Shown one piece after another: positions 3,001-36,282 of a stretch of 64,000 bases of DNA; position 1 is the stretch's first letter, and each line of letters opens with the position of its first letter. Position numbers and translations under genes: made by a program. Where the stretch lies: the IMG/VR virus record IMGVR_UViG_3300031555_007106; one strand, written 5' to 3'. The notes below the pieces were generated by a model. The model searched no databases, had not been told where the DNA came from, and saw only the letters and a program-made list of their open reading frames with translations. The DNA comes from a virus. Taxonomy: Duplodnaviria; Heunggongvirae; Uroviricota; Caudoviricetes.

Positions 3001-4742
3001 CCGTCATCACGCTTAGTAGAAACTTCGTAATTAAAGGAAGTCGGCAATGATTCGCTGGCGTAAAGAGGATACGCTTCAAGAAAAGGAAGGGCGAGATAAA
3101 CATATGGCATGCTCTGCTTATATGTTACAACTGAGTCTGTATACATATTAAAATCAGTTACAGTAGCCAGCGTTTCTTTATAAACAGATTCGTTTAAAGG
3201 ATTATACCATCCATTATTCATGCCTTGGTAAGAATAAGACCATTCATCCGTAATAAAATCGGTTTCGACCTGTTTAGTTGAAAAAGAAGCATTGTTTACT
3301 GAATTCCGAATTGTTCCTTTGTTTGTACAAGTCATAAAACCGAACTGTCTGTACGCCTGTGTAACAGAGCCATTTGTAACACAACCTTCTATTGTTCCTT
3401 CATTCCAAGCAGTAAGAAAACCAGAGTTACCTACTGGAAGGACTGTCCCAGCTGTTTCAGATAACTTATAAATGCTTGTTCCATAAGGACCGTAATCACG
3501 TGCTACAGGATATATGGATGTTACTAAACCCTGTTCCATATCACCGTAAACATAACAATTGCTTATTTCTCCGTAGTTATAAGCACATAAGAATGCACTG
3601 TACGATACAATATCATTTTTATTATACGAACCTTTGATATTTAAATTGCAGATTGAACCCGAAGTCCCGAGATAACCTACAAAACCTTTACCGATAGGGT
3701 CATAAGTTTCAAGACGCTCAATATAATCTTCGGTCCAAGGCGTATCAGGGTGTAATCCTTTTATACGACAATTGTTGCCATCAAATACGCCCATAAATCC
3801 TTCAGTATCAGCATATTCAGAAATGTCATCATAAGTATAGCTCGCAATAATATCGGTAGATTTTAACTCTTTGATAGCACTTACTTCATTATCTGAAATT
3901 AGATTATATTCACTAAGAGTTATGGGGTGTCCTTCAAGTGGGAGCTCCTGATTAGTAGTTGCTGCGCCGATAGGTGTGTACCAATGCTCAATATTTCCAT
4001 CAGGCAAACGATAAACTAAAAGTCCGTTCGTTACAGCATTCAACCCATTCATTTTATCATCAAGTGTATCTGACACTTGTTTGTAACGAGCTGTTATAGG
4101 TGTGCCATCTGATAATGTTGCTGTCGACCAGTCATACAAATATCTTTTATTGATTTCACCATTAAAGTTTACCCCATAGAGCAAATCTCTGAAACGCATT
4201 TCAGCCTCAGGAAGCTCATAATAACGAGTGGAAATCATATCACCTGTACTGCTACAACCGATAGTAGCATCGACTGGCGTAATGTCGGGAACGTGTCCCA
4301 GAGCATTATAATCCTCACTGGTTATGTTCGGTGTATCAAATGGATATGAGATTGGTAGCCAATCATAGCCATCTAAATCAATATCCGTATTAAGAGTAAT
4401 TGTTTTTCCTTCAAATGTATCTACTAATGCGAGATATTCTTCGGGCACGTTTTGTAATGTAGCAACAAAATCTGCATATTCTTCGCCTGATAGGTCGTTT
4501 GTGAGGATACTGAGAGCTGCAAGCTGAGCTGCACTTGAGATTGTAAAGTCTGTTTCGTTTGGCTTATACCAACTAAAATCATAGGTTACACCATCCCAAA
4601 CATTAAAACCACCAGAGTCAAAATCTCCATTGAAAGTTGTTGTTTCAGCAGACACCGTAATAGGAATTGAATTCAATGCCATAGCACACGCCAATAAACT
4701 CGCTATTCCTATTTTGACTCGCCTATTAAATTTTGTTTGCAT
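1..4742 (-). CDS. secreted surface protein, partial (>1580 aa; C-terminus beyond window start); signal peptide MQTKFNRRVKIGIASLLACAMALNSIPITVSA/ETT; beta-helix-like GxxNxG repeats and C-terminal Ig-like (Listeria-Bacteroides-type) repeats
   Basis: Hand translation of the minus strand from ATG at 4742 (RBS AAGGAGG 6 nt upstream) runs open to position 1 (checked at both ends). Absent from ORF track only because no stop lies in the window. Domain calls from motif patterns only. Confidence 0.65.
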   Translation of the reverse strand, partial: MQTKFNRRVKIGIASLLACAMALNSIPITVSAETTTFNGDFDSGGFNVWDGVTYDFSWYKPNETDFTISSAAQLAALSILTNDLSGEEYADFVATLQNVPEEYLALVDTFEGKTITLNTDIDLDGYDWLPISYPFDTPNITSEDYNALGHVPDITPVDATIGCSSTGDMISTRYYELPEAEMRFRDLLYGVNFNGEINKRYLYDWSTATLSDGTPITARYKQVSDTLDDKMNGLNAVTNGLLVYRLPDGNIEHWYTPIGAATTNQELPLEGHPITLSEYNLISDNEVSAIKELKSTDIIASYTYDDISEYADTEGFMGVFDGNNCRIKGLHPDTPWTEDYIERLETYDPIGKGFVGYLGTSGSICNLNIKGSYNKNDIVSYSAFLCAYNYGEISNCYVYGDMEQGLVTSIYPVARDYGPYGTSIYKLSETAGTVLPVGNSGFLTAWNEGTIEGCVTNGSVTQAYRQFGFMTCTNKGTIRNSVNNASFSTKQVETDFITDEWSYSYQGMNNGWYNPLNESVYKETLATVTDFNMYTDSVVTYKQSMPYVYLALPFLEAYPLYASESLPTSFNYEVSTKRDDGQLPSLNYMAANLQGVTESGEAWIPVQYNTEIGESIAANHLYGVYGYTAVGGICAVNDGIISGCTNNGVIIVMNNTSTRITGNLTNSSDTADALSYIRPDNAYGLFSTQSNTINNAAGIAVLNRGTISGCSNKGNVVERMYTDRDKVINNMLPIGQITYTSNGFYANDCIIYGAADMTYNPTGLRWHIEASDPTSQSFYMHQRGNDIDENDICRTVNYNYDANMPYPTVLYAFQQSDSELSDYSVTGEDVFNGTHTYSTIQLTSGISVWNTNNINNSTNEAYAENGIVHFSTGLNGSKAMIAGCKQNGQTVNNLGYYLYNTDVTDSTVTNESGIYGLAYIVKSDGVTVLQDNLSVYNGSGGYYKLYADDNRMKVSNIRLYDNELTGKGISVNAYNVDFNDVYNFQNSENGLSEIENCNVTNFYMYGTAVNGVGKGTIATQMNNINFYGNSAEYAVGVFENGAISDVSINTGNFANDSLGMCTYLIDYKNGILSDVTTFTDIKTRAFECYNVDIDNVLAVGSFEEKSGSAQALNNFMYCDLNNVILELEVPVEWKDPRYNAEQYLPGLIYTETVNGNTNAFTDCFIQCGNGYNIETQANFMYDVPVHKIDGLTLVYDNNAKSTGAFAYILDNGSSDTRTYNYTVAHNDTIDVLSEISQNVEIDKVMFTGIRPLTSYTRTINNSSEKPYYCVDIPYTGYGVGEIKGSVIQDEIEQVTSAANQIFPQTHLYIQKGEKYTIIPEAETGYGLSKLEEIINEKSTELKFVIGEPLTRTMEANDVTIYATWADVYVIDTDDESEFVKITTNVPSSAPNSEINVNVTPIDETTEVNRVWYYNYVVNESNREVLDTENPVEIDLQTMTFVMPANNIKIFASVHTSDVVIGSFILSGVKGDVDNEENVITVKLDNSVDLTNIAPDKFEIVGAAKVEPAIAEKLDFTKDVIYTVTSEAGTTETFTVKVIALEDGYITSFDVLGKTAEINQETGEINISISKDIDLSSVTPK

Positions 4743-5008: not shown

Positions 5009-8000
5009 TTAACATATAATCTCTTCGTTTTCCTGTTCCTTCTTACGTTCAGAAACACCCTTCAACGCACTTGCTGCACAAGCGATACCGCTTATTGCAG
5101 CCATAGCAACGAATCCGGCCACGTTAAGAGGAGCACCAGTTTCAGGATTATCATCCTTCTTCTTCTCTTCCTCATCGTCGTCCGAAGGCGGCGTTGTTGT
5201 TGTCTCTTCATCGTCATCCGAAGGCGGTGTTGTTGTTATCTCTTCATCGTCGTCCGAAGGCGGTGTTGTTGTTATCTCTTCATCGTCATCCGAAGGCGGT
5301 GTTGTTGTAACAGGAGGCTTTGTATCACCGGGAGTTGTTATAACAACAGGAGGTCTTGTACCGCCGGGAGTTGTTGTAACAACGGGAGGTGTAGTATCAT
5401 CAGGTGTAGTAGTTACAACAGGAGCTGTAGTTTCTTCGGTCTTGTTATTTACAGCTGTAGGATATGTAGTAAAGTCTACGTCTGTGCCTACTACTCTGTA
5501 AAGAACTCTACCAGTTTCATCTACTGTACATCTGAATACCTTTTCGGATAATTCATATCCTGCAGGAGCAGAGATTTCCTTGATGTAACGTGTTACGCCA
5601 ACTTCAACAGCAAAAGATACAACTGCCATATTGTATGTGTCAGAGTCCTTATTACTATCAATCTTGGATGTATCTTCAGCAAGCTTAATTGTGCAAGCTT
5701 CATCTTCGTAAAGACCAAACTTAGCACCTTCAAGAGCCTTAGTACCATCAGTCTTGATTACCTTTGCAAAGTATTCAGCTTCGGAGTTTACACATACAGG
5801 GAATGTTTCGCTTAAATCAGCACCACTGTTATAAATGCGATAAGATGTCTTATTGTTAGCGTCAATTACGCATTCATAAACAGTATCCTTGATATTGTAT
5901 CCTTCGGGAGCAGAAGTTTCGCGTAAGTAATAAGTTGTGTTAGATGTAATACCTGTGGAGAATACTACAACAGCCTTGCCATTAGTAGAAGATTCTTCAT
6001 TTGTATCAATAGCAGATACTGCACTTGCTACAAACTGTTTACAACCTGCATCCTTATAGAGGGAGAATGTAGCACCTTCGAGAGGTTCGTTGCTGCCATC
6101 AACCTTAATAAGTCTAATTTCGTTGTATTCCTTACTGTTATGGAATGTTACAGGAATGTTTTCACCCTTGTAAAGTCTTTCAACAGCGACAGGTGCTACG
6201 GGGATATATTCTTCAAGTTCTTCTTCAGAAATTTCATAACTGATAAAGTTATTTTCTGAATCATAGATGGGAAGATTTTCGAGAGAAGCATAACCGTTGT
6301 TACCTGTTACCATTGTATAGGTATTGCCGTCAGAACCCTTTACATAGAATGTAATGCCTTCAACCTTGTCGTCATCAGCAGTCTTAATAATTTCGATACC
6401 ACCAACTTCTTCGTCAGTAAGCTTGTTTTCGAATTTAACGGTTACTGTGTCATCGGTCTTAAGTTCCTTTTTCTGTACAGGCAATTCATAATATCTGTTA
6501 GGAGTGCCTACTTCAGAAATTTCGTAAACAAGCTTATCGCCTGTTGCAGGGTCTACTGTAAGAAGGTCATTAATGACAATTTCACCATTAGCATCTGTAG
6601 CATAAGTACTGCTTAATACTTCGCCGGTGCTTAAAGTTGTCTTGACGTTGAAGACTACGTTTTCGATAACATTATCTTCTGCTGTCTTAACAATTTTAAG
6701 AGAGCCAAATTCGGACTTATCCTTATAGTTCTTAACATTTACAATAAGAGCAAGAGGACGTGTTTCGCCATCATATTCTTTTGCAATTCTTACATTATCA
6801 TAGTTGTCAACTAAATCGGATGTGCAGTTTGTGGTAAGAGTATAATGAGTATCGCCGTCTGCAATGTAAACGTAAATTTCTTCGTTAAGAAGTTCGTACG
6901 CATTACCCTCTTCATCTACAGGAGCCTTAGTTTCAACAATCCAATAAACATTGTCAAACATAAGGTCTGTAAAAGAAGCTACACCATTTTCATCTGTTGT
7001 TGCAGATGCAACAGCATTACCTGTTTTGTCGTCATAAAGGGTGAATTCAGCACCGGAAAGAATCTTACCTGTGTCTAAATCAGTCTTCATAACATCGAGC
7101 GAAGGAAGAGGAGTGGGAGTATTTTCGATGATAATCGGAATAAACTCTTCCTGACCTTCAACTACTGTTACAGGGAATACTTCTGTTGTTCTTATATAGC
7201 CGGAAGGAGCCTTAGTTTCTTCAATTTCATAATTGCCGGAAGAAACTGTATTAAATACTGCTATACCATATTCATCAGATGTAGCTGTAGCTACTGCTAC
7301 TCTACCACCTAAATCTGTAATCTGATAAAGAGTAAATACCGCTCCCTGAAGAGGAATATTATTGTTATCAACTTTCATTACAGAAAGCTTATTGGAAGAA
7401 CCTTTGTTTTCGATTTCAATTTCTACAACAGCTTCTTCATTACTTGAGAAAACAGGAACATCAACGATTGTTTCGTTATTTTCAGGTAATTCATAGCCAT
7501 AAGGAGCAGAAATTTCAACAAGCTTATACTTACCTGCACTGAGGTTATCAAATTCAACCTTACCATTAAGACCGGTATTTTTCTTTTCAACTACAATTTT
7601 CTTTTCGTTGCCATTAGCATCAAGCTGAATAAGCTTGAATGTTGCTCCGGCAAGAGTCTTACCTGTTTCATCGTCTTTCTTAATTACAACAATCTTTGCA
7701 GGCTGTGTATTTACACAATCAAGATTATAGTAATATTCATTTTCAACTTCGATAACTGTATTTTCTGTAATTGTAAAACGAATGGGGTCAGTTAATTTAG
7801 CATAACCCATAGGAGCCATAGTTTCAACAAGAACATATTCCTTGTTAAACGCAAGGTCTTCAAAAGCTACTTTACCATCAGACTTTGTTGTCTTAGAAGC
7901 GATAAATGAAGCACTTTCGCCCATTACATCAAATTCACTTGCCTCATAAAGCTTAAATGTAGCACCGTTAAGAGTTGCACCAGCTTCATTTTTCTTAGTG

Positions 8001-11000
8001 AGAATTAAAGTAGCATCTTTTGTAATGTTGTTAAAAGGTTTGCCGAGTTCATTACCTAAACCATCTTCATTGAGAGTAATATCTGTAATGGCTTCAGGAC
8101 GTCTATAGCGGTCAGGAACATCAATTTCAATGATGTTATACTTGATTAACTGGTCGTTTTTATCATATACGGGCAAGTCTTCAAATACTACAAGACCGTT
8201 TGCATCGGATTCTGCAATCTGAGAATAATCGCCATTCTGAGATTCGATTAAGAACTTAAAACCAGACTTATCGCCGTTATTCTCCACAGTGTCAAGAATA
8301 TCATCACACCACTTAACAAACTGATAATCTACTCTCTTAAGTTCGTTCTCAAACTCTACTTGTGTAACAGCTAACTCAGGTTCAAAATCGTCATTTACCT
8401 TAATCACAATTTCTACAGGGAACTGGTCTTTGTAACGAAGAGGAGTTTCTTCCTTTACTTCATAAACAATCTGAGCTGTACCCTTTGTGTTATAAACAGG
8501 AAGACGGTCAAGTTCGCCGTAACCTACAATTTCACCAGAGTTGTGATTTCTCTGTCTATAAACTGTAAGTGTGTATTCTTTTGTGGGGTCAATACCTGCG
8601 GGGTCAGTACCTGTAATTGTGAACTCGATACCATTTACTTCATCATCTTCACAATACTTAACGACACCAACAGCAGCTACGTTAATATAATTGTAGAACT
8701 GAGCCTTTTCTGTTTCGCCGGGAGTTACTGTAACTGTCTGGTCTGCACATAATTTATAATAAACATTTGTGCGTTCTTCGTGAATTGTGTATGTAGCGTA
8801 ATTTCCATCTACATCATAAGCGGGAATTTCTTCAAATAAAATTTCGCCGAATTTATCGGTAGCAAGTGTTTCTTCATAAATAGCAGCTTCGCCACCCTTA
8901 TGAATTACCGCCTTATCAGACTTGATTGTAAATTCAAAGCCTTCAATTACACGAGTTTCGGAGTCTTTTTCAATCTTGATGTTGCACCACCAAGGCTGAT
9001 ATACATTCTTGAATACATTTTCAGTGCTGTTAGACTTTGCTTTTTCAATTCTTTCTTCAAGAGTTGTATTAGCAATATCAACACTGATTGCTGCTACTTC
9101 ACAAGAAGGAACATAATCATCGCTCCAGTTACGATTCCAGAAATCAGGAGCTACTGTAGTTTCTTCAACGATATAAGCCCCAGTGGGAATCTTATCTACT
9201 ACAAGAGAGCCGTCTTCTGCAAGAATAAATTCTGTGGAACCTGCACCAGTGTATTCATAAATGCCCTTTTCGGTCATTGACGCACCGATGTATTCGCCTG
9301 TAGCTACGCTCTTAATCTTGAATTTGGAAAGGTTGATACCTGCTTCATATGCTTTTCCGTATTCCTTTTCGCTTCTAGCTGTAAGTCTGGTACGACCATC
9401 CTTATCAACGAACCACTTTTCAAGATATAAGATGCCATCGCCGTCAGCTTCGTTATTGAAGATGATGTGACCTTCTTCATCCTTTTCAAGCTCACTTGCT
9501 TCAAAGTTTTTACCTACATTCTTCTGATAACCAGCAGGAGCATTTATTTCCTTAATCTGATAATTCTCAAGATTACCGAGGAACACATTATCTTTAAAGT
9601 GAATGCTACCGTCGCTGCTAAGTACAAACTTTGTAGCATTATCTGCTACTCTGGTTGTTTCATCAGTAAATGTATATACTGTATAGCCGTTTTCATCGAT
9701 TTCGGAAGTTGCAATAACGTAAGCAATTTCATTCTTATCGAAGATAACAAACTCACACTGTTCGTAGTAAGAGGGGTCTGTTGCTTCCTGACCATCAAAT
9801 GTCTTTAAAAGTCCTGTGGGAGGAACCTGTCTTTCTTCTACATTAAAGCCGAAATCAAACATAAAAGGTCTGGGAACAATTGCTTCCTGTTCAGAAGCAT
9901 GAGTAAGACCAACTGCACCAAGGAACTTATCGATAGAACTATCGGCTGTTGTTACAACATCCTCAAGATTAAATACAACTCTTGTTTCGTCTTCTGCCCA
10001 TGTTTCAATCACATCAGCGGGAATATAAATTGTATAGTTGCCGTTGCGTTCACGGATGATGAAGTTGGAAGCGTTATCATCATCTTCAAAATAAGTTTGT
10101 AAAACAGATTTTTTGTATCCATTGCTATATTCGTCATCACGACTCAATCCCAGTTTCTTCAGACCATCAAAAATGGACTCTGCAAACTTAGCCTGAGCAT
10201 TTTCAGGAATCATATCAAAAGTGGTATCATATCTAATAGTAAAATGAGCATAGCTTGCTTCTTCACTATTTTTTACAAACACTAAACTAGAAGACTGAGT
10301 ATTATCAAAACGATTCATAAGCTCGTAAACCCAAGTTGTCTTTCCTGCGAGAGTTATCATGTTTGTCTTGATGTAGCTGTAAGTATTGATGATATCAGTC
10401 TTTTCATCTGCCTTAAAGTTAGCAAGAAAATAATTAAGAGCTGTCTTTTCATCACCCTTGATAGCTGCTGTGGAATCATCGTACCAACCGCAGACAATGT
10501 TCCAGATGATTAACTGAGTAGCAATTCTTGCTGCTGTGGTTTCACTTGTAGCAGTAAGGCTAACTTTTTTGTTTAATCCTTTAACACCTGCATTGACACT
10601 CTTTTCAATCCACTCTAACTGATTATTATGCCATGCATTTTCCTGCCACACATAAGTTAAATCTCCGGTTAAACCGCAAGAAAGAGCAAGGGAAATATTG
10701 TTGTAGATTGCATTGGTTGTTTCTGTTCCTTCTTCAAGATACTTACAAACTCCGTGAAGGTCTGTAACTTCTCCTAAGAAACCTGTAGCAGAATCCCAAT
10801 AAACTCCTGTGCTAATTCCTTCACTGGGAGCTACACAGTAAGCAATTTGACCTGTTGTTGTTTTTCCTGCCGTTGCTGGGTCATCGCTGTAATTCAAATA
10901 AGTATCATCAATAACAGACATCTTAACGATATTACCTGCTGCAACAGGGCCGATGCCTGTTGACGGAGACAAACCTGAATTCGCAAAGTTATACCCTGCA

Positions 11001-11161
11001 TTATAATCGTCCGTACCACCATGAAGGAAGTTTACGATTACTCTCTTTTTGTCGGTATCTTCGTATGTAGGGTAACTTGCAGCAAATGCACCTAACGTAG
11101 AAGATAGCGACATTACCCCGGCAAGCGAGGCCGCAATGAAGCTTTTTACACTTTTCTTCAT
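5009..11161 (-). CDS. sortase-anchored surface adhesin (2050 aa): signal peptide, N-terminal candidate thioester domain, many Cna-B/SpaA-type repeats (G[AT]xF[KST]LY), Thr/Pro/acidic stalk, C-terminal NPETG + hydrophobic segment + charged tail
   Basis: ORF track. N-terminus MKKSVKSFIAASLAGVMSLSSTLGAFAAS. C-terminus ...DDNPETGAPLNVAGFVAMAAISGIACAASALKGVSERKK. Repeated GATFKLY/GAVFTLY/GAEFTLY/GATFSLY/GAKFGLY segments. Confidence 0.85.
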   Translation of the reverse strand: MKKSVKSFIAASLAGVMSLSSTLGAFAASYPTYEDTDKKRVIVNFLHGGTDDYNAGYNFANSGLSPSTGIGPVAAGNIVKMSVIDDTYLNYSDDPATAGKTTTGQIAYCVAPSEGISTGVYWDSATGFLGEVTDLHGVCKYLEEGTETTNAIYNNISLALSCGLTGDLTYVWQENAWHNNQLEWIEKSVNAGVKGLNKKVSLTATSETTAARIATQLIIWNIVCGWYDDSTAAIKGDEKTALNYFLANFKADEKTDIINTYSYIKTNMITLAGKTTWVYELMNRFDNTQSSSLVFVKNSEEASYAHFTIRYDTTFDMIPENAQAKFAESIFDGLKKLGLSRDDEYSNGYKKSVLQTYFEDDDNASNFIIRERNGNYTIYIPADVIETWAEDETRVVFNLEDVVTTADSSIDKFLGAVGLTHASEQEAIVPRPFMFDFGFNVEERQVPPTGLLKTFDGQEATDPSYYEQCEFVIFDKNEIAYVIATSEIDENGYTVYTFTDETTRVADNATKFVLSSDGSIHFKDNVFLGNLENYQIKEINAPAGYQKNVGKNFEASELEKDEEGHIIFNNEADGDGILYLEKWFVDKDGRTRLTARSEKEYGKAYEAGINLSKFKIKSVATGEYIGASMTEKGIYEYTGAGSTEFILAEDGSLVVDKIPTGAYIVEETTVAPDFWNRNWSDDYVPSCEVAAISVDIANTTLEERIEKAKSNSTENVFKNVYQPWWCNIKIEKDSETRVIEGFEFTIKSDKAVIHKGGEAAIYEETLATDKFGEILFEEIPAYDVDGNYATYTIHEERTNVYYKLCADQTVTVTPGETEKAQFYNYINVAAVGVVKYCEDDEVNGIEFTITGTDPAGIDPTKEYTLTVYRQRNHNSGEIVGYGELDRLPVYNTKGTAQIVYEVKEETPLRYKDQFPVEIVIKVNDDFEPELAVTQVEFENELKRVDYQFVKWCDDILDTVENNGDKSGFKFLIESQNGDYSQIAESDANGLVVFEDLPVYDKNDQLIKYNIIEIDVPDRYRRPEAITDITLNEDGLGNELGKPFNNITKDATLILTKKNEAGATLNGATFKLYEASEFDVMGESASFIASKTTKSDGKVAFEDLAFNKEYVLVETMAPMGYAKLTDPIRFTITENTVIEVENEYYYNLDCVNTQPAKIVVIKKDDETGKTLAGATFKLIQLDANGNEKKIVVEKKNTGLNGKVEFDNLSAGKYKLVEISAPYGYELPENNETIVDVPVFSSNEEAVVEIEIENKGSSNKLSVMKVDNNNIPLQGAVFTLYQITDLGGRVAVATATSDEYGIAVFNTVSSGNYEIEETKAPSGYIRTTEVFPVTVVEGQEEFIPIIIENTPTPLPSLDVMKTDLDTGKILSGAEFTLYDDKTGNAVASATTDENGVASFTDLMFDNVYWIVETKAPVDEEGNAYELLNEEIYVYIADGDTHYTLTTNCTSDLVDNYDNVRIAKEYDGETRPLALIVNVKNYKDKSEFGSLKIVKTAEDNVIENVVFNVKTTLSTGEVLSSTYATDANGEIVINDLLTVDPATGDKLVYEISEVGTPNRYYELPVQKKELKTDDTVTVKFENKLTDEEVGGIEIIKTADDDKVEGITFYVKGSDGNTYTMVTGNNGYASLENLPIYDSENNFISYEISEEELEEYIPVAPVAVERLYKGENIPVTFHNSKEYNEIRLIKVDGSNEPLEGATFSLYKDAGCKQFVASAVSAIDTNEESSTNGKAVVVFSTGITSNTTYYLRETSAPEGYNIKDTVYECVIDANNKTSYRIYNSGADLSETFPVCVNSEAEYFAKVIKTDGTKALEGAKFGLYEDEACTIKLAEDTSKIDSNKDSDTYNMAVVSFAVEVGVTRYIKEISAPAGYELSEKVFRCTVDETGRVLYRVVGTDVDFTTYPTAVNNKTEETTAPVVTTTPDDTTPPVVTTTPGGTRPPVVITTPGDTKPPVTTTPPSDDDEEITTTPPSDDDEEITTTPPSDDDEETTTTPPSDDDEEEKKKDDNPETGAPLNVAGFVAMAAISGIACAASALKGVSERKKEQENEEIIC
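5164..5310 (-). repeat. 4 tandem copies of a 36-bp repeat encoding (I/T)TTTPPSDDDEE in the adhesin stalk
   Basis: ctcttcatcgtc[ag]tccgaaggcgg[ct]gttgttgtt[ag]t x4. Confidence 0.85.
5311..5420 (-). repeat. 3 degenerate ~36-bp tandem repeats encoding TTPGxTxPPVV Thr/Pro linker
   Basis: aggaggctttgtatcaccgggagttgttataacaac / aggaggtcttgtaccgccgggagttgttgtaacaac / gggaggtgtagtatcatcaggtgtagtagttacaac. Confidence 0.7.
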
Positions 11162-14378: not shown

Positions 14379-14380
14379 TA

Positions 14381-15776: not shown

Positions 15777-16706
15777 TCATCTTTCGTTATCTCCTTCGCA
15801 AATTAACTTTATCAAGTCATCTTCGGTACTTCCAACACTCTTCCCTTTTCTATGATAGATGATGATATTTTCGTCAGAGGAAAAGAATTCCCCGTAAATT
15901 TTCTTCCATGAATTAGCTGTGATGTTCGGAGCTATAAATTTGGTAAACAAGAAAACCTTGTATCCTTTTCTTTTAAGAGCATTATATAATGCCATTGATA
16001 AGATAGGATACTTTTCACCATTATTTATTTCTGCATCACGGAGCATAGAATAATCATTACCGCACAAGCATAATTCTACACCATACCAAGTGTCTTCATT
16101 ATAGCCGCTTGTAAGTTCACTTACAATTTTCGATATCAAAGCTTCGTTTTGAGCTTCAAATTCGATATCATTATTAATAATATTACTCTTATCAAAGACG
16201 ACATCCGCAATCGGGGCTAAACCTTCTGCGGTTGTTACGAGTTTTTCTTTTGCTTTTGCAAATTCATCCATGTTACACTCTTCATTAGCAACATAACAAA
16301 CGAAACTGTCGTATATTGCTTTATTAAGTTCTGTAACTGAATTTTCGCTTGTTTCGGTTAAGAAAACACATGATTTTATGTCTCTTTCCCATAGCTTAGT
16401 AAAAACATACGCCGCTACTTCCTTCATTACATTAACGCTGTCACTTATCCACACAACTGATTTTTCCATATTGTTTCCTTTTGCTTCAACAATCTCAGCA
16501 TTAAAATGCTCATTGCTGAGAAACCTTCCAGCCCAACCGTTATCGAAATTGTCGACAATGTAATCCTTATATTCTTCTGAATATCTGACTGTCCCGATAG
16601 AAGTTACCGCACCCGTTATGTAGTTATTGGTCACTTTCAAGTGGTCTCCAACAGCAATTTGTTTACCGTATCTATCACAAAAAGGAGTATACTGCTTCTC
16701 ATTCAT
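15777..16706 (-). CDS. hypothetical protein (309 aa)
   Basis: ORF 15777..16769. Start moved to MNEKQYTPF (Met22), with AAGGAG upstream and an 8-nt overlap with the upstream gene stop. Confidence 0.6.
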   Translation of the reverse strand: MNEKQYTPFCDRYGKQIAVGDHLKVTNNYITGAVTSIGTVRYSEEYKDYIVDNFDNGWAGRFLSNEHFNAEIVEAKGNNMEKSVVWISDSVNVMKEVAAYVFTKLWERDIKSCVFLTETSENSVTELNKAIYDSFVCYVANEECNMDEFAKAKEKLVTTAEGLAPIADVVFDKSNIINNDIEFEAQNEALISKIVSELTSGYNEDTWYGVELCLCGNDYSMLRDAEINNGEKYPILSMALYNALKRKGYKVFLFTKFIAPNITANSWKKIYGEFFSSDENIIIYHRKGKSVGSTEDDLIKLICEGDNER

Positions 16707-16956
16707 TTCCGGAATCTCCTTCCATAACAGGATTAAAGAAATTGATACAGTCTGCTGCAGATACAACAATTACTGCAGGACAGAAATTCATAACCATACC
16801 CTGATGAATGTCTTCTGCTACGGTCTTTGTGAACTTCATAGCGGGCTTGCCGGGTTCACATAAAAATGACTTTGTAGTGTTGTTAATCTTAGTAACATAA
16901 GATAAGCTACCATCATCAGATACAACAGCTAAAAAATAATCATACTTCTTTCTCAT
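16699..16956 (-). CDS. hypothetical protein (85 aa); first gene after cassette 1
   Basis: ORF 16699..17013. Its first 19 codons (MTTGVLKNCYYFIMKGKLI) are cassette sequence. Real start MRKKYDYF, preceded by AAAGGAAAA. Confidence 0.6.
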   Translation of the reverse strand: MRKKYDYFLAVVSDDGSLSYVTKINNTTKSFLCEPGKPAMKFTKTVAEDIHQGMVMNFCPAVIVVSAADCINFFNPVMEGDSGNE

Positions 16957-17096
16957 AATTAATTTTCCTTTCATAATAAAATAATAGCAATTCTTTAAAA
17001 CTCCAGTCGTCATAAAATAATTGCTATTTATAGTATGGTAAAAAAGCTGTAAAACAAAAAAGCCCGCCGTAGCGAGCCTTTTTCTTTGTTTTGCTA
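16957..17096 (-). repeat. terminator-promoter-RBS cassette copy 1
   Basis: Matches ~130-bp consensus (minus orientation): TAATAGCAATAAC-AAAGAAAAAGGCTCGC-TACG-GCGGGCTTTTTTG-TTTTAC-GCAAACTTTATCATACTAT-TAGTAGCAATTATTTT-ATGACGACTGGAGTTTTAAAG-AATTGCTATTATTTT-ATTATGAAAGGAAA-N-ATG. Confidence 0.85.
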
Positions 17097-17438
17097 TTAT
17101 TCTGCGTACTTAAACCAAACTAAGTAACAATCATCATCTGCAATGAATTCTGCACTTGTATCAGCATTGTATCTCATTTCGCCATCTAAAAGAACTTCGT
17201 CGTCCTCTATAAGCTCATCATAATATTCCATATTATCGTTTCTGCTAATAATATATATAATTTCAAGCTTAGTAAGTTCTTCTTCAGCGTGGTCGTATTT
17301 GTATGCTACATCGCCAATATCACATCTGCGTTCATTCAGATAATAGTCAACTGCATCTTCGGTATTTTCATTGTACTCAGATAAAGTCCACCATTCTTCA
17401 AGAGTGGAGAGCAACATTCTTTCTTCGTTTGTCAACAT
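17097..17438 (-). CDS. strongly acidic small protein (113 aa)
   Basis: ORF track. About 27% D+E. Stop codon lies inside the cassette-1 TAATAG motif. Confidence 0.65.
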   Translation of the reverse strand: MLTNEERMLLSTLEEWWTLSEYNENTEDAVDYYLNERRCDIGDVAYKYDHAEEELTKLEIIYIISRNDNMEYYDELIEDDEVLLDGEMRYNADTSAEFIADDDCYLVWFKYAE

Positions 17439-22799: not shown

Positions 22800-23300
22800 T
22801 TAACCCATTGGTCCATAACTTTGATTTTCAATTCTTGCCAACTTTAAACGCATCTCATACGCTTCTTGGTCTCTTTCGTTCATCCTTTTCCGAAGACTAT
22901 CTCTATCTTCTATCAAAGCATAGATATGCTGAACAGCTCTTCTTAAACCATCAACATTAGCAGGTAAAAGACCTATCGGAGACTGAACGTATTTTAAAGA
23001 TTCATCATTTTTCGCCGTCGATGAAAAAGGAAATTCATCGTTCACCTCAATATCGCTGAAACCCATCAATACGTGAAGACGATAATCATTCATAGCATCG
23101 TCAAGCGTTTCATTCCATTTGTTACAGTTGTCAGGGATATATCCTGTTTCTGTATCGACAACGCAAAAAGCGAAGAAATATTCACTATTTGGCTTATCAA
23201 GCTTGAATTTATGAAAATCCACATAAATACTCCCCGCATTTCCATCGGGAAGACATTCGACAACAACAGGTGTAATTTCATATCTTTCATCAACTTTCAT
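22800..23300 (-). CDS. hypothetical protein (166 aa); first gene after cassette 2
   Basis: ORF track. AAAGGAAA RBS from cassette. Confidence 0.65.
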   Translation of the reverse strand: MKVDERYEITPVVVECLPDGNAGSIYVDFHKFKLDKPNSEYFFAFCVVDTETGYIPDNCNKWNETLDDAMNDYRLHVLMGFSDIEVNDEFPFSSTAKNDESLKYVQSPIGLLPANVDGLRRAVQHIYALIEDRDSLRKRMNERDQEAYEMRLKLARIENQSYGPMG

Positions 23301-23441
23301 AATATTTTCCTTTCATTAATAAAAATAATAGCAATCTATAACTCCAGTCGTCATAAAATAATTGCTACTAATAGTATGATAAAGTTTGCGTAAAACAAAA
23401 AAGCCCGCCGAAGCGAGCCTTTTTTTCTTTGTTATTGCTTA
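23301..23441 (-). repeat. terminator-promoter-RBS cassette copy 2 (UUCG-loop terminator variant; 3-nt shorter spacer)
   Basis: aaaaataatagcaatctataactccagtcgtcataaaataattgctactaatagtatgataaagtttgcgtaaaacaaaaaagcccgccgaagcgagcc... Confidence 0.85.
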
Positions 23442-23918
23442 TTAACCAAACGATTCAACCCGAACATAATTAGGGACGACATCAACATCTAACTCTGCAA
23501 AGTATTTTTTGAAAATTTCGCAAAGTTTTTCTTCAGTTAAGTTCTTTTCAGTTTCGTTCATATACCATGGATGTGTTTCAGGATGCATAATAGCCCAATC
23601 ATATTCCGAACGAACTTCATCAATAAAGACTCCTGTTTCTTTTCTCATGATGTAAGCAATTACGGAATAAAACGAACCGCAACCTGATATATCATATTCA
23701 TCTTCAGCTTCAACATATCCGTCTAACCAATCAGAAAATTCTTCGTTTTCTTCATTCAGATTTTCGATATCAAATCCTTCAGATTCGGCCTTTTCCAGCA
23801 TTTTCTTATAATCTTCCGGTAAATGTTTTTCATAGAAACGTAAAAAAGCCTTAAGTTCTACGCATATTACGTTTATATCAACGCCGTATCCATAGGTAAT
23901 ACTTGTCTGCATACTCAT
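23442..23918 (-). CDS. acidic hypothetical protein (158 aa)
   Basis: ORF track. Stop codon inside cassette-2 TAATAA motif. Confidence 0.65.
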   Translation of the reverse strand: MSMQTSITYGYGVDINVICVELKAFLRFYEKHLPEDYKKMLEKAESEGFDIENLNEENEEFSDWLDGYVEAEDEYDISGCGSFYSVIAYIMRKETGVFIDEVRSEYDWAIMHPETHPWYMNETEKNLTEEKLCEIFKKYFAELDVDVVPNYVRVESFG

Positions 23919-27066: not shown

Positions 27067-27420
27067 TTACGTTAAAACGTTTATTAGACAGATAGCTTGT
27101 CTCTCAGCCTCTTCTTCCGAATCATACAATCTTATCTGATTATTCATTTCTTCGCAGCCCATCTGCTCAAAAATGCACTCAGCGATAACACCGTTAGCTT
27201 CATCACCATACTGTTCTCTGATTTCCGATACACTATCATAATATCCCGAAATATATCTGTAGATATCATCTTCAGAATATTCTTCAAGAGAAATGGTAGC
27301 TTCAACAACATAATAACCGTCAGGATAATCGCGAACTTCAACTAACTGAAATTCAGTAGAGTTGAGGTCTCGGCGCCACTGAAGGTCATCTGTTCTTATC
27401 CATCCTCTGGGTAATTTCAT
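27067..27420 (-). CDS. acidic hypothetical protein (117 aa); first gene after cassette 3
   Basis: ORF track. Confidence 0.6.
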   Translation of the reverse strand: MKLPRGWIRTDDLQWRRDLNSTEFQLVEVRDYPDGYYVVEATISLEEYSEDDIYRYISGYYDSVSEIREQYGDEANGVIAECIFEQMGCEEMNNQIRLYDSEEEAERQAICLINVLT

Positions 27421-27553
27421 ATTTATCCTTTCCTTTCATAAAAATAAGCAATAATTTTTAAACTCCGTTCATCATAAAAATATTGCTATACATAGTATGG
27501 TAAAAAAGCCATAAAACAAAAAAAGCCCACCGAAGTGAGCTTCTTTATTGCTA
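27421..27553 (-). repeat. terminator-promoter-RBS cassette copy 3 (divergent; terminator stem carries compensatory GCUCAC/GUGGGC change)
   Basis: ...aaactccgttcatcataaaaatattgctatacatagtatggtaaaaaagccataaaacaaaaaaagcccaccgaagtgagc... Confidence 0.8.
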
Positions 27554-27982
27554 TTATTTTTCTATTATTCTTCTTCGTACGCTTTCCGCCTGTTCCATAG
27601 TCAGAAGATTATTGTTCTTTGCCATATCCTCATTATACCCAAGTTCAGTGCAAATTTTAGCTATCGAAGTTGTTGTCACTCCGAATTCTTCCGCTAGAGC
27701 TTTCATTGAAACAGTCGGCTTTGTTCCTTCTGCAACGCTCGTTTCGGTGTTATCAACTGTCTTTTTCTTGCGTGTAGACTTAGGTAACTTTGTTTCTGCC
27801 TGAGGAGCATCGAAAACTTCGTTTTTCGCATTTTCAAGAAGCTCTTCAAGCATCTCCTTTTTATCCTTGAGGCAATCCTTACGTGCATTCATTATTGCAA
27901 TTTCCGTTTCGCAAGCGGCAATCTCCTTTTTGCACGTTTCAAATTCTTTTGTTATTTTTTCAATAAGAGTCATAATACTCAC
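27554..27982 (-). CDS. coiled-coil protein with C-terminal helix-turn-helix-like segment (142 aa); candidate DNA-binding regulator
   Basis: C-terminus SMKALAEEFGVTTTSIAKICTELGY...LTMEQAESVRRR. Stop codon inside cassette-3 TAATAG. Confidence 0.6.
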   Translation of the reverse strand: MSIMTLIEKITKEFETCKKEIAACETEIAIMNARKDCLKDKKEMLEELLENAKNEVFDAPQAETKLPKSTRKKKTVDNTETSVAEGTKPTVSMKALAEEFGVTTTSIAKICTELGYNEDMAKNNNLLTMEQAESVRRRIIEK

Positions 27983-28919: not shown

Positions 28920-29588
28920 TCAATAAATCACTTTTTCAACCATATTGTATGTAATATTGGGATTGAATTTGAAGAATATACCTAAAGCTTCGTTCTTCGA
29001 CCATGCGTAAGTCACGAATTCATAATTCTTATTGTTTATTGTAAAACGAATTTTATATTCTCGACATATGTTTAAATGTTTCGGGTCGTAATCGTGCGTT
29101 ATATCGTACCAATAAATGACACCGTCGTCATCTTCGGATTTGTTGTATTTTTCTAACTCAGGATACTTATTTACCATTTTTCGGTAATTATACTCTTCGA
29201 TAATAGGCATACGACCATAATAAGAGTTTCCTATATATTCATTTTTGAGGTCAATTTCATACCTTGCGTAGTGTTCTACTGTTAAATTGTAGATGAATAT
29301 TTTTATCGTTCTCCACTTACGCAATATGTTTATCTGCGTTGTTAAATCGCAATCGATATAATCATCACAAACCCATCCCCTTTTATCGCAATAAATATAG
29401 CCTAGAAGTGCAAGTTTTTCTGTACCATCTTCTGAAAGTTCTATATTCAAACGAGCCTCAACAAATCCTATACGGTACTTAGCAATAGTAAAAACAGGAA
29501 TTTCTACATTGTGTAATTCATGAGACTCCCAAATCTCGCGAATTGCATCGCTTTCTTCATGACAAAAATTGTCTTTCTTTTTTTTCAT
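28920..29588 (-). CDS. hypothetical protein (222 aa); N-terminal ~110-aa domain paralogous to 38907..39794
   Basis: YRIGFVEARLNIELSEDGTEKLALLGY...GWVCDDYIDCDLT vs YRIGFIQGELMIENSEDGSEKITLFGY...GWCPDDYIDYDLT. Confidence 0.65.
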   Translation of the reverse strand: MKKKKDNFCHEESDAIREIWESHELHNVEIPVFTIAKYRIGFVEARLNIELSEDGTEKLALLGYIYCDKRGWVCDDYIDCDLTTQINILRKWRTIKIFIYNLTVEHYARYEIDLKNEYIGNSYYGRMPIIEEYNYRKMVNKYPELEKYNKSEDDDGVIYWYDITHDYDPKHLNICREYKIRFTINNKNYEFVTYAWSKNEALGIFFKFNPNITYNMVEKVIY

Positions 29589-32830: not shown

Positions 32831-33187
32831 TTACTCTTTTGATAAACTCTGAAGAGTTTGCCAATACGGCATTACGCACTTTTTGAGGTAGCCGCATTCG
32901 TCAATATCAATGTAAGCCTCATTGCCGGATTTGATATCCCCTTCAGACAAGCCCCACAGCATATCGGTGAAGAACAATTCTAAAAGAGGAGATTCAATAT
33001 CAACCAATGTATACCAGATGTGTACGAGAGGTTTAATTGTATCACTACAACTTTCTTCAGTAGGTTCACCGAACGCTGCCACAGTTTCAGGAAATCTTTC
33101 TTTAAATTCTTCAACTGTTAAAGCATATCGTTTGTAGTATCCCTTATAGTTCTCTTCAACAATTACTGCTTTAATGTTTTCTGCCAT
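32831..33187 (-). CDS. hypothetical protein (118 aa); first gene after cassette 4
   Basis: ORF 32831..33205 begins in the cassette RBS (ATGAAAGGAAAG). Start moved to MAENIKAVIV. Confidence 0.6.
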   Translation of the reverse strand: MAENIKAVIVEENYKGYYKRYALTVEEFKERFPETVAAFGEPTEESCSDTIKPLVHIWYTLVDIESPLLELFFTDMLWGLSEGDIKSGNEAYIDIDECGYLKKCVMPYWQTLQSLSKE

Positions 33188-33322
33188 TTTCTTCTTTCCT
33201 TTCATTAAAATAATAGCAATTCTTTAAAACTCCAAACGTCATAAAACAATCGCTACTAATAGTATGATAAAAAAGCCGTAAAACAAAAAAGCCCGCCAAA
33301 GCGGACTTTTTCGCAATATTGC
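33188..33322 (-). repeat. terminator-promoter-RBS cassette copy 4 (terminator stem GUCCGC-UUUG-GCGGGC, compensatory)
   Basis: aaaataatagcaattctttaaaactccaaacgtcataaaacaatcgctactaatagtatgataaaaaagccgtaaaacaaaaaagcccgccaaagcggac... Confidence 0.8.
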
Positions 33323-34042
33323 TTAAAAATTATTCATAGCTTGTTCTTTTTCATAGAGTGCCTGATATTTATTGACATACGCTTCAAGCTTTTTTATAAA
33401 TTTCTCAGCGTCTTTTTTTATGTTGTCATTATCCTCCTCAAATAATTTTTCGAGGTTTTCCATTTCATTATCTCGGAATGCCTCGATTAAATCTCTCTTC
33501 ATTAATGCATATTTGTTCTCAGAAAAATGCCCTAAAGAGTAATGTGCAGAAGGTGTGTGTAAAACCTTGTAATTTACAACTCTCAATCCGGTTGTAGGAC
33601 TATTAGCTTGCACTTTTGGCACTTCACAACTTTCTGTTGTAAAGACAATAATCAGTTCATCCTCTTCTTTCTTATCTTTACCGATAATATAAATACTGTT
33701 ATCTTTATCCAAATTTCTTTTTTCTGCTTGCCTTGAATTATAAAAGCCGCATTTAAGCGGTATACCCATAGACATAAATACATCATTAAGTACATCTGAC
33801 ACACAATGAGAAACACTACTGTTTTTGTAAGAGGACACTATTCGAAGTCTCTGGTTGATAATAGAGTCAAAACCTATACCAACAAGAAACTCCCTAATCG
33901 TCATTCGGTAGAAATCTTCAATTTCCTTTACATCTTTTCTCGGATACAGTTTTCGCAATCGAAAATCCTTTTTAGACTTTTCTATAGTTTTAAAAAAACC
34001 ATCTTCCGCAACAAGCACTTTCTTAGTTTCATACATGCCCAT
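33323..34042 (-). CDS. hypothetical protein (239 aa)
   Basis: ORF track. Stop precedes cassette 4. Confidence 0.65.
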   Translation of the reverse strand: MGMYETKKVLVAEDGFFKTIEKSKKDFRLRKLYPRKDVKEIEDFYRMTIREFLVGIGFDSIINQRLRIVSSYKNSSVSHCVSDVLNDVFMSMGIPLKCGFYNSRQAEKRNLDKDNSIYIIGKDKKEEDELIIVFTTESCEVPKVQANSPTTGLRVVNYKVLHTPSAHYSLGHFSENKYALMKRDLIEAFRDNEMENLEKLFEEDNDNIKKDAEKFIKKLEAYVNKYQALYEKEQAMNNF

Positions 34043-36142: not shown

Positions 36143-36282
36143 TTTAATTCTCCTTTTAAAATAATTTAAGCAATTTTTAGAACTCCATAACGTCATAAAA
36201 TACTGCTATATATAGTATGAAAGTTTTCTTATAAAATAAAAAGCCCGCCGTAGCGAGCTTTTCTTTGCTATTATCTATTATT
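36143..36282 (-). repeat. terminator-promoter-RBS cassette copy 5 (most divergent)
   Basis: ...aagcaatttttagaactccataacgtcataaaatactgctatatatagtatgaaagttttcttataaaataaaaagcccgccgtagcgagc... Confidence 0.7.

Follow-up and report, generated by a model that had tools for sequence, protein, structure and literature searches.

A repeated PeSL-like cassette with putative RNA pairing elements at the operon junctions of a large phage

The operon junctions in the analysed window, a stretch of 64,000 nt, are occupied by a repeated unit of ~150 bp that we read, on balance, as a PeSL-like regulatory cassette. Its TAGCAAT elements would be RNA pairing elements, forming a 5′ leader hairpin and a programmed pairing between the 5′UTR and 3′UTR of each operon, and the window would be the early/accessory gene array of a large phage (contig of at least 193 kb) infecting a Firmicute. 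The cassette appears to join two operons, with the Rho-independent terminator of the upstream operon followed by a conserved promoter (TTGTTT-16-TACTAT) and then by the 5′ leader, strong Shine-Dalgarno sequence and start codon of the next. Its anatomy, its positional conservation and the covariation seen in terminator stems, hairpins and long-range pairs were computed from the sequence.

The motif AATAATAGCAAT, allowing at most one mismatch, has 18 matches in the window against 1.24 expected, a number equalled in 0 of 100 shuffles; two of the 18 (37684 and 37893) lie in the coding sequences of two paralogous genes and are not cassettes. Exact TAGCAAT occurs 31 times against 13.6 expected, with 21 of the 31 inside cassettes. 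There are ten full cassettes in the window, all on the minus strand; with a further five located upstream on this 193-kb contig, the array numbers 15. The CATACTAT boxes of the window cassettes, also on the minus strand, are at 17030, 23371, 27492, 33259, 36212, 38132, 44028, 49384, 52069 and 58061; the window additionally contains a unit consisting only of copy 1 and a terminator (14374), and four promoter-only boxes.

In gene orientation the cassettes share one order: a stop codon with copy 1, an intrinsic terminator, the CATACTAT promoter box, copy 2, the loop UGAYG-N3-4-GGAG, copy 3, a Shine-Dalgarno sequence and ATG. The parts of the cassette at 16957-17096, where the three motif copies reported in the earlier note were located on the minus strand, are as follows.

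17090-17101, minus strand: copy 1, AATAATAGCAAA, with one mismatch to the motif; includes the TAA stop codon (17097-17099) of the upstream gene 17097-17438
17051-17089, minus strand: intrinsic terminator, from its fold, with an A-tract, a stem GCTCGC (17072-17077)/GCGGGC (17062-17067), a loop TACG and then TTTTTTGTTTT
17030-17057, minus strand: promoter-like element, TTGTTT (17052-17057), a 16-nt spacer and TACTAT inside the invariant CATACTAT box (17030-17037)
17020-17026, minus strand: copy 2, TAGCAAT, 5′ arm of the predicted leader hairpin
17001-17012, minus strand: invariant loop motif TGACGACTGGAG (consensus UGAYG-N3-4-GGAG)
16980-16992, minus strand: copy 3, AATTGCTATTATT, 3′ arm of the predicted leader hairpin and, in addition, complementary to copy 1 (14374-14385) at this operon's 3′ end
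16954-16972, minus strand: Shine-Dalgarno sequence GAAAGGA (16966-16972) and ATG (16954-16956) of the first operon gene (16699-16956, 85 aa)

The CATACTAT box is invariant in all cassettes, and its distance to copy 2 is constant (11 nt in 10/10 window cassettes). From its sequence the element at 17030-17057 is a putative promoter, with a transcription start predicted at 17021-17025. Spacing elsewhere is looser: copies 2 and 3 are 33 to 37 bp apart, and copy 1 and the box 51 to 62 bp. Copy 1 overlaps the stop codon of the upstream gene in 9 of 14 cases, and in every copy the conserved block extends ~20 nt beyond copy 3, to TTATTATGAAAGGA at the Shine-Dalgarno sequence. Since the first cassette of the array (L024:3685) lacks copy 1 and the array ends in copy 1 and a terminator only, each operon has one copy 3 and one copy 1. 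The remaining units of the window are:

14334-14385, minus strand: copy 1 (14374-14385) and terminator without promoter or leader, closing the array's last operon at its 3′ end
23298-23442, minus strand: cassette w23377, with a variant copy 1 TTAATAAGCAATAAC that has 12-nt complementarity to the variant copy 3 of cassette 27418-27564
27418-27564, minus strand: cassette w27498, whose copy 3 is the variant TTATTGCTTATT and whose terminator stem, GCTCAC/GTGGGC, is compensatory
33185-33330, minus strand: cassette w33265, whose variant copy 1 AATAATTTTTAAGCAAT is conserved in L027 and L028 and has complementarity to the variant copy 3 of cassette 36140-36282
36140-36282, minus strand: cassette w36218, with a variant copy 3 AATTGCTTAAATTATTTT
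38056-38205, minus strand: full cassette, consensus type
43951-44099, minus strand: full cassette, consensus type
49308-49456, minus strand: full cassette, with a copy 1 AATAGTAGCAAC that pairs with its cognate copy 3 via G-U
51992-52140, minus strand: full cassette, consensus type
57986-58132, minus strand: full cassette, consensus type

The earlier note is partly confirmed in what it observed and partly supported in how it interpreted this. The motifs are real, and its count of three TAGCAAT sites per unit holds at 16957-17096; of the 10 cassettes, 4 have all three sites in exact form. The 26-nt interval that it described as strictly conserved is invariant only in TGAYG and GGAGT. Its premise of an inverted pair bounding the cassette was mistaken, as the partners that covary flank the operon and the conserved block runs past copy 3.

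The main result is the complementarity of copy 3 in each cassette to copy 1 of the cassette that follows downstream, where the operon begun at that copy 3 has its 3′ end; the complete operon mRNA is therefore predicted to have complementary 5′ and 3′ UTRs, an unusual arrangement. All 19 cognate pairs form 11–21 predicted base pairs (−11.0 to −16.6 kcal/mol), with a mean of −13.5 kcal/mol, against −11.1 for copies 3 and 1 of the same cassette. Focal copy 1, for example, has copy 3 of cassette 23298-23442 as its predicted partner, in a duplex of −13.3 kcal/mol. The cognate value was reached in 0 of 200,000 pooled permutations, and 13 cassettes (10 from the window and 3 from L019) gave p=0.004. 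Sixteen G-U pairs are present in the cognate duplexes, and in folds of whole cassettes copies 1 and 3 stay unpaired with each other. Four independent variant pairs, listed with the cassette of copy 3 first and that of copy 1 second, retain 11–13 bp of cognate complementarity:

w36218 with w33265: −12.4 kcal/mol
w27498 with w23377: −12.0 kcal/mol, 12 perfect base pairs, AAUAAGCAAUAA/UUAUUGCUUAUU
L027:4698 with L027:7525: −14.7 kcal/mol, GCUACUAUUAU/AUAAUAGUAGC
L027:7525 with L027:9304: −11.8 kcal/mol

These values (−11.8 to −14.7 kcal/mol) compare with non-cognate means of −5.0 to −8.9, the best single non-cognate combinations reaching −11.8 to −13.0, and with same-cassette values of −4.0 to −10.8; shuffle p-values are 0.0003–0.02 for each. 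Compensatory change thus maintains the match between copy 3 and copy 1, with cognate pairing far exceeding non-cognate pairing in these four pairs, which are the only independent covariation events, seen in the window phage and in a single related lineage (L027/L028). The orthologous copy 1 of L027:9304 and w33265 is served by different copies 3, in different registers. One variant copy 3 (L024:7023, AAATTTGCT) has an edge position that its cognate copy 1 does not match. Pairing in cis over 2–6 kb of translated mRNA is entropically costly, which counts against the prediction, and part of the pattern could reflect copy 3, the genes and copy 1 being co-imported as one module from a donor phage without current selection.

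At the 5′ end, copy 2, situated at or within a few nt of the predicted transcript start, would pair with copy 3 to form a terminal hairpin displaying the invariant loop. All 20 leaders fold with a 5′-terminal hairpin (−6.7 to −12.9 kcal/mol); these hairpins are AU-rich and their z-scores modest (−0.1 to −1.6), and both G-C pairs are lost if the start lies 2–3 nt downstream of that predicted. Changes in copy 2 are A-to-G and yield G-U pairs, and two cassettes have an altered stem sequence with pairing retained (L027:4698, AGCUUAUU/AAUAAGCU; and L027:7525). Terminator stems likewise covary (GCTCAC/GTGGGC in w27498 and GCTCCC/GGGGGC in L026). In two promoter-only units (w11210 and L024:1991) this distance from the box is kept, but the hairpin found there is an unrelated one. 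Rfam 15 gives no match in the window at the gathering threshold, and its sub-threshold matches all overlap the terminator. No site complementary to the loop motif, such as an antisense or trans target would provide, is present in 82 kb of sense strand. A leader peptide starting in the loop was considered and rejected because the loop ATG is not conserved (CTG and TTG variants occur), has no preceding Shine-Dalgarno sequence and is in different frames in different copies. ORF 16699-16956 is sometimes extended by gene callers to an in-frame ATG in the loop at 17013.

These features suggest how the cassette might act. The 3′ pairing element overlaps the stop codon of the last gene just before the terminator, and the 5′ element, copy 3 with its 3′ flank, lies 15–21 nt upstream of the first Shine-Dalgarno sequence, so placed that 11–16 nt could join the two ends of one mRNA. 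We infer the transcription start, the pairing in cis in vivo and its effect: the duplex may displace copy 2 or stack on the leader hairpin and, by analogy with hbs, could control RNase access or processing and with it the stability or translation of phage early mRNAs. In the Bacillus subtilis hbs mRNA a 14-bp pairing of the 5′ UTR with the 3′ UTR modulates RNase Y cleavage (PMC5737220), and the Staphylococcus aureus icaR mRNA also base-pairs its 5′ and 3′ UTRs within a single molecule (PMC3868564). Both resemble the cassettes in the length of the complementarity, in joining a 5′ UTR near the Shine-Dalgarno sequence to a 3′ UTR just upstream of a terminator, and in their Gram-positive context. 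The cassettes differ in that the predicted pairing is built into a repeated unit and recurs in at least 15 consecutive polycistronic phage operons of 2–6 kb; it would also compete with or stack on a 5′ hairpin and, unlike in icaR, leave the Shine-Dalgarno sequence uncovered. Stem-loops at the 5′ terminus act as mRNA stabilisers in the Escherichia coli ompA leader and the B. subtilis aprE and ermC leaders. These resemble the cassettes, as predicted, in a hairpin at or within a few nt of the transcript 5′ end followed by a strong Shine-Dalgarno sequence, whereas the cassette hairpin has an invariant loop sequence and a 3′ arm with a second, long-range predicted partner.

A more specific proposal, which we regard as possible but speculative, is that every early operon mRNA is closed or switched by its dedicated duplex between 5′UTR and 3′UTR. 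The duplex would have to await synthesis of the 3′ end, in which the last stop codon lies, and might serve as a sensor of completion or translation: the 5′ leader would leave its protective hairpin for an end-to-end duplex, and decay, RNase processing or ribosome recycling would be controlled in this way. To our knowledge, programmed genome-wide end pairing of this kind is undescribed for bacterial or phage mRNAs. The array appears to combine composite terminator/promoter cassettes, known in T4-type phages, with the 5′/3′-UTR pairing known for a few single bacterial genes; with the pairing elements built into the repeat itself, matched and covarying ends come to each of at least 15 consecutive operons. 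If the RNA pairing is real, it would show that phages can determine what becomes of an mRNA by a modular pairing of its ends, carried along with each operon, and it would provide a compact portable part for synthetic operons and explain why the ends of gene modules co-evolve under module shuffling. Annotation goes wrong where such repeats are read as terminal inverted repeats or operators, or where genes are called from an ATG that is in frame within the leader loop.

The closest known relatives in organization are the promoter-early stem-loops (PeSLs) of T4-type phages, in which a strong sigma-70-like promoter comes after a stem-loop terminator (Arbiol et al. 2010, PMC2839356; Comeau et al. 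2014, PMC4122927). PeSLs and cassettes alike are small conserved composites, present in many copies between the ORFan genes of plastic large-phage regions, and are linked to indels or replacements between relatives. In the cassettes a stem-loop terminator lies directly upstream of a sigma-70-like putative promoter, and this arrangement is repeated (alignment of 13 copies, covarying stems and fold); the setting is similarly plastic and rich in ORFans (~55 ORFs without a Pfam family). They differ from PeSLs in belonging to a Firmicutes phage, in their unrelated sequence, and in two features not described for PeSLs, a 5′ leader that is structured and has a loop of invariant sequence, and the operon-spanning complementarity of copy 3 and copy 1. 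As with PeSLs, the cassettes may double as conserved recombination substrates at module boundaries.

It is rather unlikely that recombination is their whole function, with PeSL-like terminator/promoter repeats acting as a pure scaffold and the match of copy 3 to copy 1 a functionless result of importing whole modules from donors with a different consensus. Cassette halves are mosaic, with promoter halves 100% identical between non-adjacent cassettes at unrelated junctions and uncorrelated similarity matrices for terminator and promoter halves (r=0.11), and a synteny break with a two-gene indel relative to L027 maps to the Shine-Dalgarno sequence of a cassette (a single case), where PeSL crossovers also fall; PeSLs are themselves a precedent. 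However, every donor would still need a copy 1 that is the reverse complement of its copy 3, and this in turn requires a function; the orthologous variant copy 1 (w33265, L027:9304 and L028) pairs with two different copies 3, in different registers, in two lineages; nor does copy 2 track the variants of copies 1 and 3. The recombination module proposed in the earlier note has some support in the PeSL sense, from the mosaic halves and the breakpoint at a cassette Shine-Dalgarno sequence, and is not supported as a MITE-like element. A non-autonomous transposon with 12–13-bp terminal inverted repeats would suit short, multi-copy, intergenic units with consensus inverted 12-mers ~120 bp apart, but is extremely improbable and largely refuted. 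A search for target-site duplications found none (longest shared flank 3.9 nt on average, against 3.4 under the null), the inverted repeats are not the termini of the unit, conservation continuing beyond copy 3 to the Shine-Dalgarno sequence, and copy 1 overlaps coding sequence and stop codons. All copies have a single orientation and sit at regular operon boundaries, same-cassette inverted repeats break down in the variant cassettes, and no transposase family was detected among ~85 scanned of the ~117 window ORFs. Precise presence or absence at orthologous junctions was not seen in a small sample: the sole difference is a multi-gene replacement, and three junctions, of which L026 shares two and L027/L028 one, are conserved in relatives at 65–79% amino-acid identity.

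Two further explanations place the function in DNA. TAGCAAT could be the half-site of a phage repressor or activator bracketing each promoter (at about −70, +1 and +36) and switching all early operons jointly, as MrpR does through SPBRE in SPbeta, so that repeated operators have a precedent among large Firmicutes phages (PMC10516654). Conservation of the motif is high and it surrounds every cassette promoter, and SPBRE also consists of short motifs at many operon promoters in long one-directional arrays of small genes; SPBRE, however, is a single 15-bp DNA site with demonstrated protein binding (PMC10516654), whereas the cassettes have three copies with variable spacing and compensatory, strand-specific variation, which points to RNA. 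An operator array for a dimeric binder, as the earlier note suggested, is unlikely: the distance between copies 2 and 3 varies by 4 bp and that between copy 1 and the box by 11 bp, in place of a fixed geometry. The three sites are dissimilar in the divergent cassettes L027:4698, L027:7525, w27498 and w36218, each still complementary to its RNA partner, sense-strand changes are G-U compatible, and promoter-only units share the CATACTAT box but not the motif. No DNA-binding protein was identified, and the binder that had been nominated, the product of 27554-27982, has sub-threshold matches only, with no significant match to a DNA-binding family or PDB entry. Alternatively, copy 3 would be a second, extended −10 promoter (TGCTATTAT, which fits TGnTATAAT) and copy 1 the same element on the opposite strand, directing antisense transcription into the end of the upstream operon. 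A scan does predict ATGACG-18-TATTAT with TG at 23354-23325, but the spacer from loop to copy 3 is 20–21 nt in most copies, variant copies 3 (TGCTTATTT and TTGACTTCATT) lose the −10 match and keep complementarity to their cognate copy 1, and promoter-like matches in the region are not enriched over shuffles in a consensus promoter/terminator scan; this we consider very unlikely.

The assignment of the array to a phage of a Firmicute is consistent with its gene content and its relatives. The genes are small ORFans on one strand in operons of ~2–6 kb, and tRNAs and CRISPR-like arrays are present on the same contig. A Pfam scan of ~55 concatenated small ORFs recognised no RNA-binding protein, RNase or regulator. 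Matches to a methyltransferase, DUF3848, DUF4942 and SpaA raised the idea of a plasmid leading region (Frpo), which was rejected on account of the contig tRNAs and CRISPR-like arrays and the phage-only homologs; in the ssDNA fold, moreover, the −10 box is not enclosed in a long hairpin of the kind that makes up an Frpo/ssi promoter, where both the −35 and −10 boxes are so enclosed. By tblastn, matches were found only in Bacillus SPO1-like phages (38 records) and none in plasmids, and the phage homologs of the DUF3848-like window protein are likewise confined to SPO1-like Bacillus phages. Searches with 10 kb against phages (megablast) gave no match, and distant blastn with one cassette returned only terminator-like or AT-rich fragments. 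The cassette pattern was absent from IMG/VR and from both scans of a metagenome collection, which does not contain the source contig, and had one chance match (L011) in GTDB genomes. Sequences nearly identical to the window element (L002-L010 and L020 at 99.96–100%, L021 at 99.6%) are for that reason uninformative.

SPO1's host-takeover module, as summarised in one account, contains 26 early genes of small size, in operons whose promoters and ribosome binding sites are strong (PMC6873191; Stewart et al. 1998 as cited there), and it resembles the window array in that small early genes form short operons, every one of which has a strong promoter and ribosome binding site of its own. The regulatory sites of SPO1 and the cassettes have no sequence relationship. 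Relatives at ~50% amino-acid identity (L012-L018, L022, L023 and L029) have different cassettes or regulatory repeats. We know of no report of complementarity between operon ends in SPO1.

Each repeat, approximately 150 bp in length and situated between operons of a large phage, is a cassette combining terminator, promoter and leader. Running from 17101 to 16954 in the direction of the genes, the focal cassette has the following organization.

Elements of the focal cassette, in gene orientation
17090–17101, minus strand: copy 1, AATAATAGCAAA, including the TAA stop of gene 17097..17438
3′ of copy 1, minus strand: intrinsic terminator, with an A-tract and a stem-loop (GCTCGC-TACG-GCGGGC) followed by TTTTTTGTTTT
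17030–17037 (box), minus strand: promoter-like, TTGTTT, a 16-nt spacer and TACTAT within the invariant CATACTAT box
17020–17026, minus strand: copy 2, TAGCAAT
Between copies 2 and 3, minus strand: TTATTTTA-TGACGACTGGAG-TTTTAAAG
16980–16992, minus strand: copy 3, AATTGCTATTATT
16954–16956 (ATG), minus strand: TTATTATGAAAGGAAAATTAATT, then ATG

The features described in the earlier note, three TAGCAAT-type sites with copies 1 and 3 in inverted relationship, are thus genuinely present at 17101–16954. The window contains 18 matches to the motif with at most one mismatch (1.24 expected) and 31 exact TAGCAAT matches (13.6 expected).

There are ten full cassettes in the window, together with four promoter-only CATACTAT boxes (11210, 11268, 12430 and 13893) and a single unit containing only copy 1 and a terminator (14374). 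A 193-kb JGI contig includes the window in reverse complement, and five further cassettes lie upstream on it. Alignment of 13 copies reveals invariant blocks at the terminator stem and T-tract, CATACTAT, TAGC, TGA-G, GGAGT and the TTGCT/SD region, and conservation runs beyond copy 3, the following 15 nt being identical in nearly all copies. The box and copy 2 are a constant 11 nt apart, and copy 2 is 22 nt from GGAG in all ten window cassettes (23 nt in one upstream copy); the distances from copy 2 to copy 3 (33–37 nt) and from copy 1 to the box (51–62 nt) are variable.

Nearly all window genes are on the minus strand, with a GC skew of ~−0.2 throughout. Those recognizable include orphan DNA methyltransferases, a thymidylate kinase, DUF3848, DUF4314 and DUF3268 proteins, and a 2050-aa SpaA-repeat protein; no Pfam family was found for ~55 ORFs between 36 and 64 kb. 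Upstream of the window, the contig also carries genes for tRNA-Asn and tRNA-Gly and two CRISPR-like mini-arrays. A tblastn search with the DUF3848-like protein matched 38 records of Bacillus SPO1-like phages but no plasmid. IMG/VR contains relatives at ~47% identity, and relatives at ~50% identity are on 180–240-kb contigs labelled Ruminococcaceae, Oscillospiraceae or Clostridia MAGs. We conclude that the source is a large Firmicute phage, in which the window represents an early or accessory gene array. Two large adhesin-like proteins are unusual neighbours for such an array: the 2050-aa protein (5009..11161, minus), which has seven SpaA/Cna_B-type domains and 36-nt tandem repeats (5169–5438) at the 3′ end of its gene, and an ORF of at least 1580 aa (3..4742, minus) that runs past the window start, begins with a signal-peptide-like segment and matched no Pfam family. 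Immediately after the cassette at 38056..38205 come two neighbouring small Cys-rich genes that are paralogues of one another (37541..37840 and 37864..38058, minus; motif FHCI-WF-C-YCPAR); two near-matches to AATAATAGCAAT within their coding sequences are chance or coding matches.

The earlier proposal that the inverted motifs bound a MITE-like unit as terminal inverted repeats is not sustained. In 9 of 14 cassettes the upstream stop codon falls wholly or partly within copy 1, and in seven of these it is the TAA of AATAATAG. Folding of whole cassettes, as RNA or ssDNA, yields the terminator and a copy 2:copy 3 hairpin but no pairing between copy 1 and copy 3 of one cassette. Copy 1 is missing from the first cassette of the array, at the other end of the array a copy 1 and terminator stand alone, and no target-site duplications were found around the cassettes. 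These features are consistent with copies 1 and 3 each occurring once per operon rather than once per cassette.

The main result concerns the variant copies. Variant copies 3 (...TTGCTTA...) occur in only two window cassettes, w36218 (36140..36282) and w27498 (27418..27564), and variant copies 1 (...TAAGCAAT...) in only two, w33265 (33185..33330) and w23377 (23298..23442), each in the cassette directly downstream of a variant copy 3, where the operon led by that copy 3 has its 3′ end. Taken as its reverse complement, the w27498 copy 3 shares the 12-nt AATAAGCAATAA with the w23377 copy 1, and the w36218 copy 3 matches the w33265 copy 1 over TTTAAGCAAT and then, past a 2-nt bulge, AATAATTT. RNAduplex energies for these cognate pairs are −12.4 (w36218/w33265) and −12.0 kcal/mol (w27498/w23377), compared with −7.5 and −10.8 kcal/mol within the same cassette.

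Relatives provide further examples. In L026 (65% aa identity), two orthologous junctions carry this cassette type, the terminator stem being changed in a compensatory way (GCTCCC/GGGGGC). Synteny with the window from 34942 to 27566 extends to L027 (79% identity, 14 kb) and to L028, both of which retain the unusual copy 1 TTTTTAAGCAATATT in the cassette orthologous to w33265. The cassette upstream of that orthologue, L027:7525, has a different copy 3, AAGAATATTGACTT, which pairs with the w33265-type copy 1 in another register (AGAAUAUUG-a-CUU with AAG-CAAUAUUCU, −11.8 kcal/mol), and the L027:4698 copy 3, GCUACUAUUAU, matches copy 1 of the next cassette, AUAAUAGUAGC (−14.7 kcal/mol). Pooling 19 cognate pairs gives a mean of −13.5 kcal/mol, compared with −11.1 for same-cassette pairs and −10.9 for all pairs; 0 of 200,000 permutations reached the value observed for the cognate pairs. 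Every variant pair is significant against shuffles (p = 0.0003–0.02) and against random genomic 30-mers; the covariation events number four, in a single phage lineage.

A leader hairpin is predicted in all 20 folded leaders, starting within 0–2 nt of the A of TAGC. Its stability (−6.7 to −12.9 kcal/mol) is modest, as are the z-scores (−0.1 to −1.6). The stem sequence is altered in L027:4698 (AGCUUAUU/AAUAAGCU) and L027:7525 (CGAUAUUUUUAAU/AUUAAGAAUAUUG) with pairing and the loop motif retained, and copy 2 changes in the window element are A-to-G, yielding G-U pairs. No complementary site and no Rfam family match were found for the invariant loop (UGAYG-N3-4-GGAG). Transcription is predicted to start at 17021–17025, the exact position setting how much of copy 2 is within the RNA. 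The copy 1-pairing segment of copy 3 and the 3′ arm of the hairpin have 3–9 nt in common, such that the hairpin and the long-range pairing would either compete or stack. In some cassettes a leader-loop ATG or TTG is in frame with the downstream gene (16699..17013, 48855..49367 and 37864..38115), and ORF finders and some gene calls add ~19 residues (for the first of these, 104 rather than 85 aa in L001–L003; the call in L004 and L008 is the 85-aa form); this N-terminal extension is an annotation artefact of the cassette.

The TAGCAAT copies could alternatively be DNA sites for a regulator, as the earlier note also suggested, and the SPBRE/MrpR system offers a precedent (PMC10516654). This is disfavoured, as the spacing between sites is variable and the variation between them is compensatory; the proposed binder, gene 27554..27982, gave sub-threshold matches only. 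The covarying terminator stems, covarying leader stems and covarying, G-U-tolerant copy 3/copy 1 pairs point to the sense transcript, rather than protein-recognised duplex DNA, as the probable level of selection. The best explanation of the inverted motifs, correctly observed but misread in the earlier note, is that they are elements for RNA pairing, each having its partner at the other end of the operon, with pairing predicted in cis over kilobases. The closest functional precedent is the Bacillus subtilis hbs mRNA, in which a 14-bp 5′/3′-UTR interaction modulates RNase Y cleavage (PMC5737220); Staphylococcus aureus icaR provides a second example of 5′/3′-UTR pairing (PMC3868564).

In architecture, the PeSL cassettes of T4-type phages (PMC2839356, PMC4122927) come closest. 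Similarities of the terminator and promoter halves are uncorrelated (r=0.11), promoter segments are 100% identical at unrelated junctions, and a synteny break and a two-gene indel relative to L027 both map to a cassette SD. These features fit a PeSL-like role in module exchange and give some support, in that form, to the recombination module envisaged earlier. The cassette appears to combine known kinds, PeSL-like cassettes and 5′/3′-UTR pairing, in a transcript architecture that is testable and potentially novel.

Other differences and repeats were observed on the contig and in its relatives. A 222-aa gene (28920..29588) is missing from the otherwise syntenic L027 (L027:12977–12993), and this indel is mid-operon and not at a cassette. 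The four promoter-only boxes of the window (minus strand) and one at L024:1991, in the upstream part of the contig, constitute a second promoter class sharing TCTATCATACTAT and lacking the terminator and TAGCAAT leader; three of the five have an upstream TGTGTGAGAA...AAAAAGTTT motif, and two (w11210 and L024:1991) have unrelated hairpins at copy 2's distance from the box. L024:1991 is at the upstream end of the mini-array region (L024:1933–3746, ~15 kb past window end 64000), which also includes the two tRNA genes. Each mini-array has four copies of a ~35-nt palindromic repeat, CTTTAGAGGTGTATGAATTTACACTATTCTAAAG, with a period of 65–66 nt, and is preceded by a conserved ~234-nt block beginning GGGTGGCTTTGCACCCTCAGAGCGAG (3 copies); no cas gene was seen in the sequence examined. 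L027 opens with the reverse complement of this block, and at L027:150–330 a promoter-only box is preceded by the palindrome-like AATGTGAATTTTCAC, which is present three times and may represent operators. L012 and L015 (~50% aa identity) have their own repeated promoter cassette, in which GAAAAATATTCGAAAA repeats are followed by TTGACT-17-TAAGAT and AAAGTAAAG; lineage-specific regulatory cassettes seem to be a family trait. The motif TTACCGATTGG of L012 and L015 recurs in direct, not inverted, orientation, both within terminator loops and immediately ahead of the SD in 5′ UTRs.
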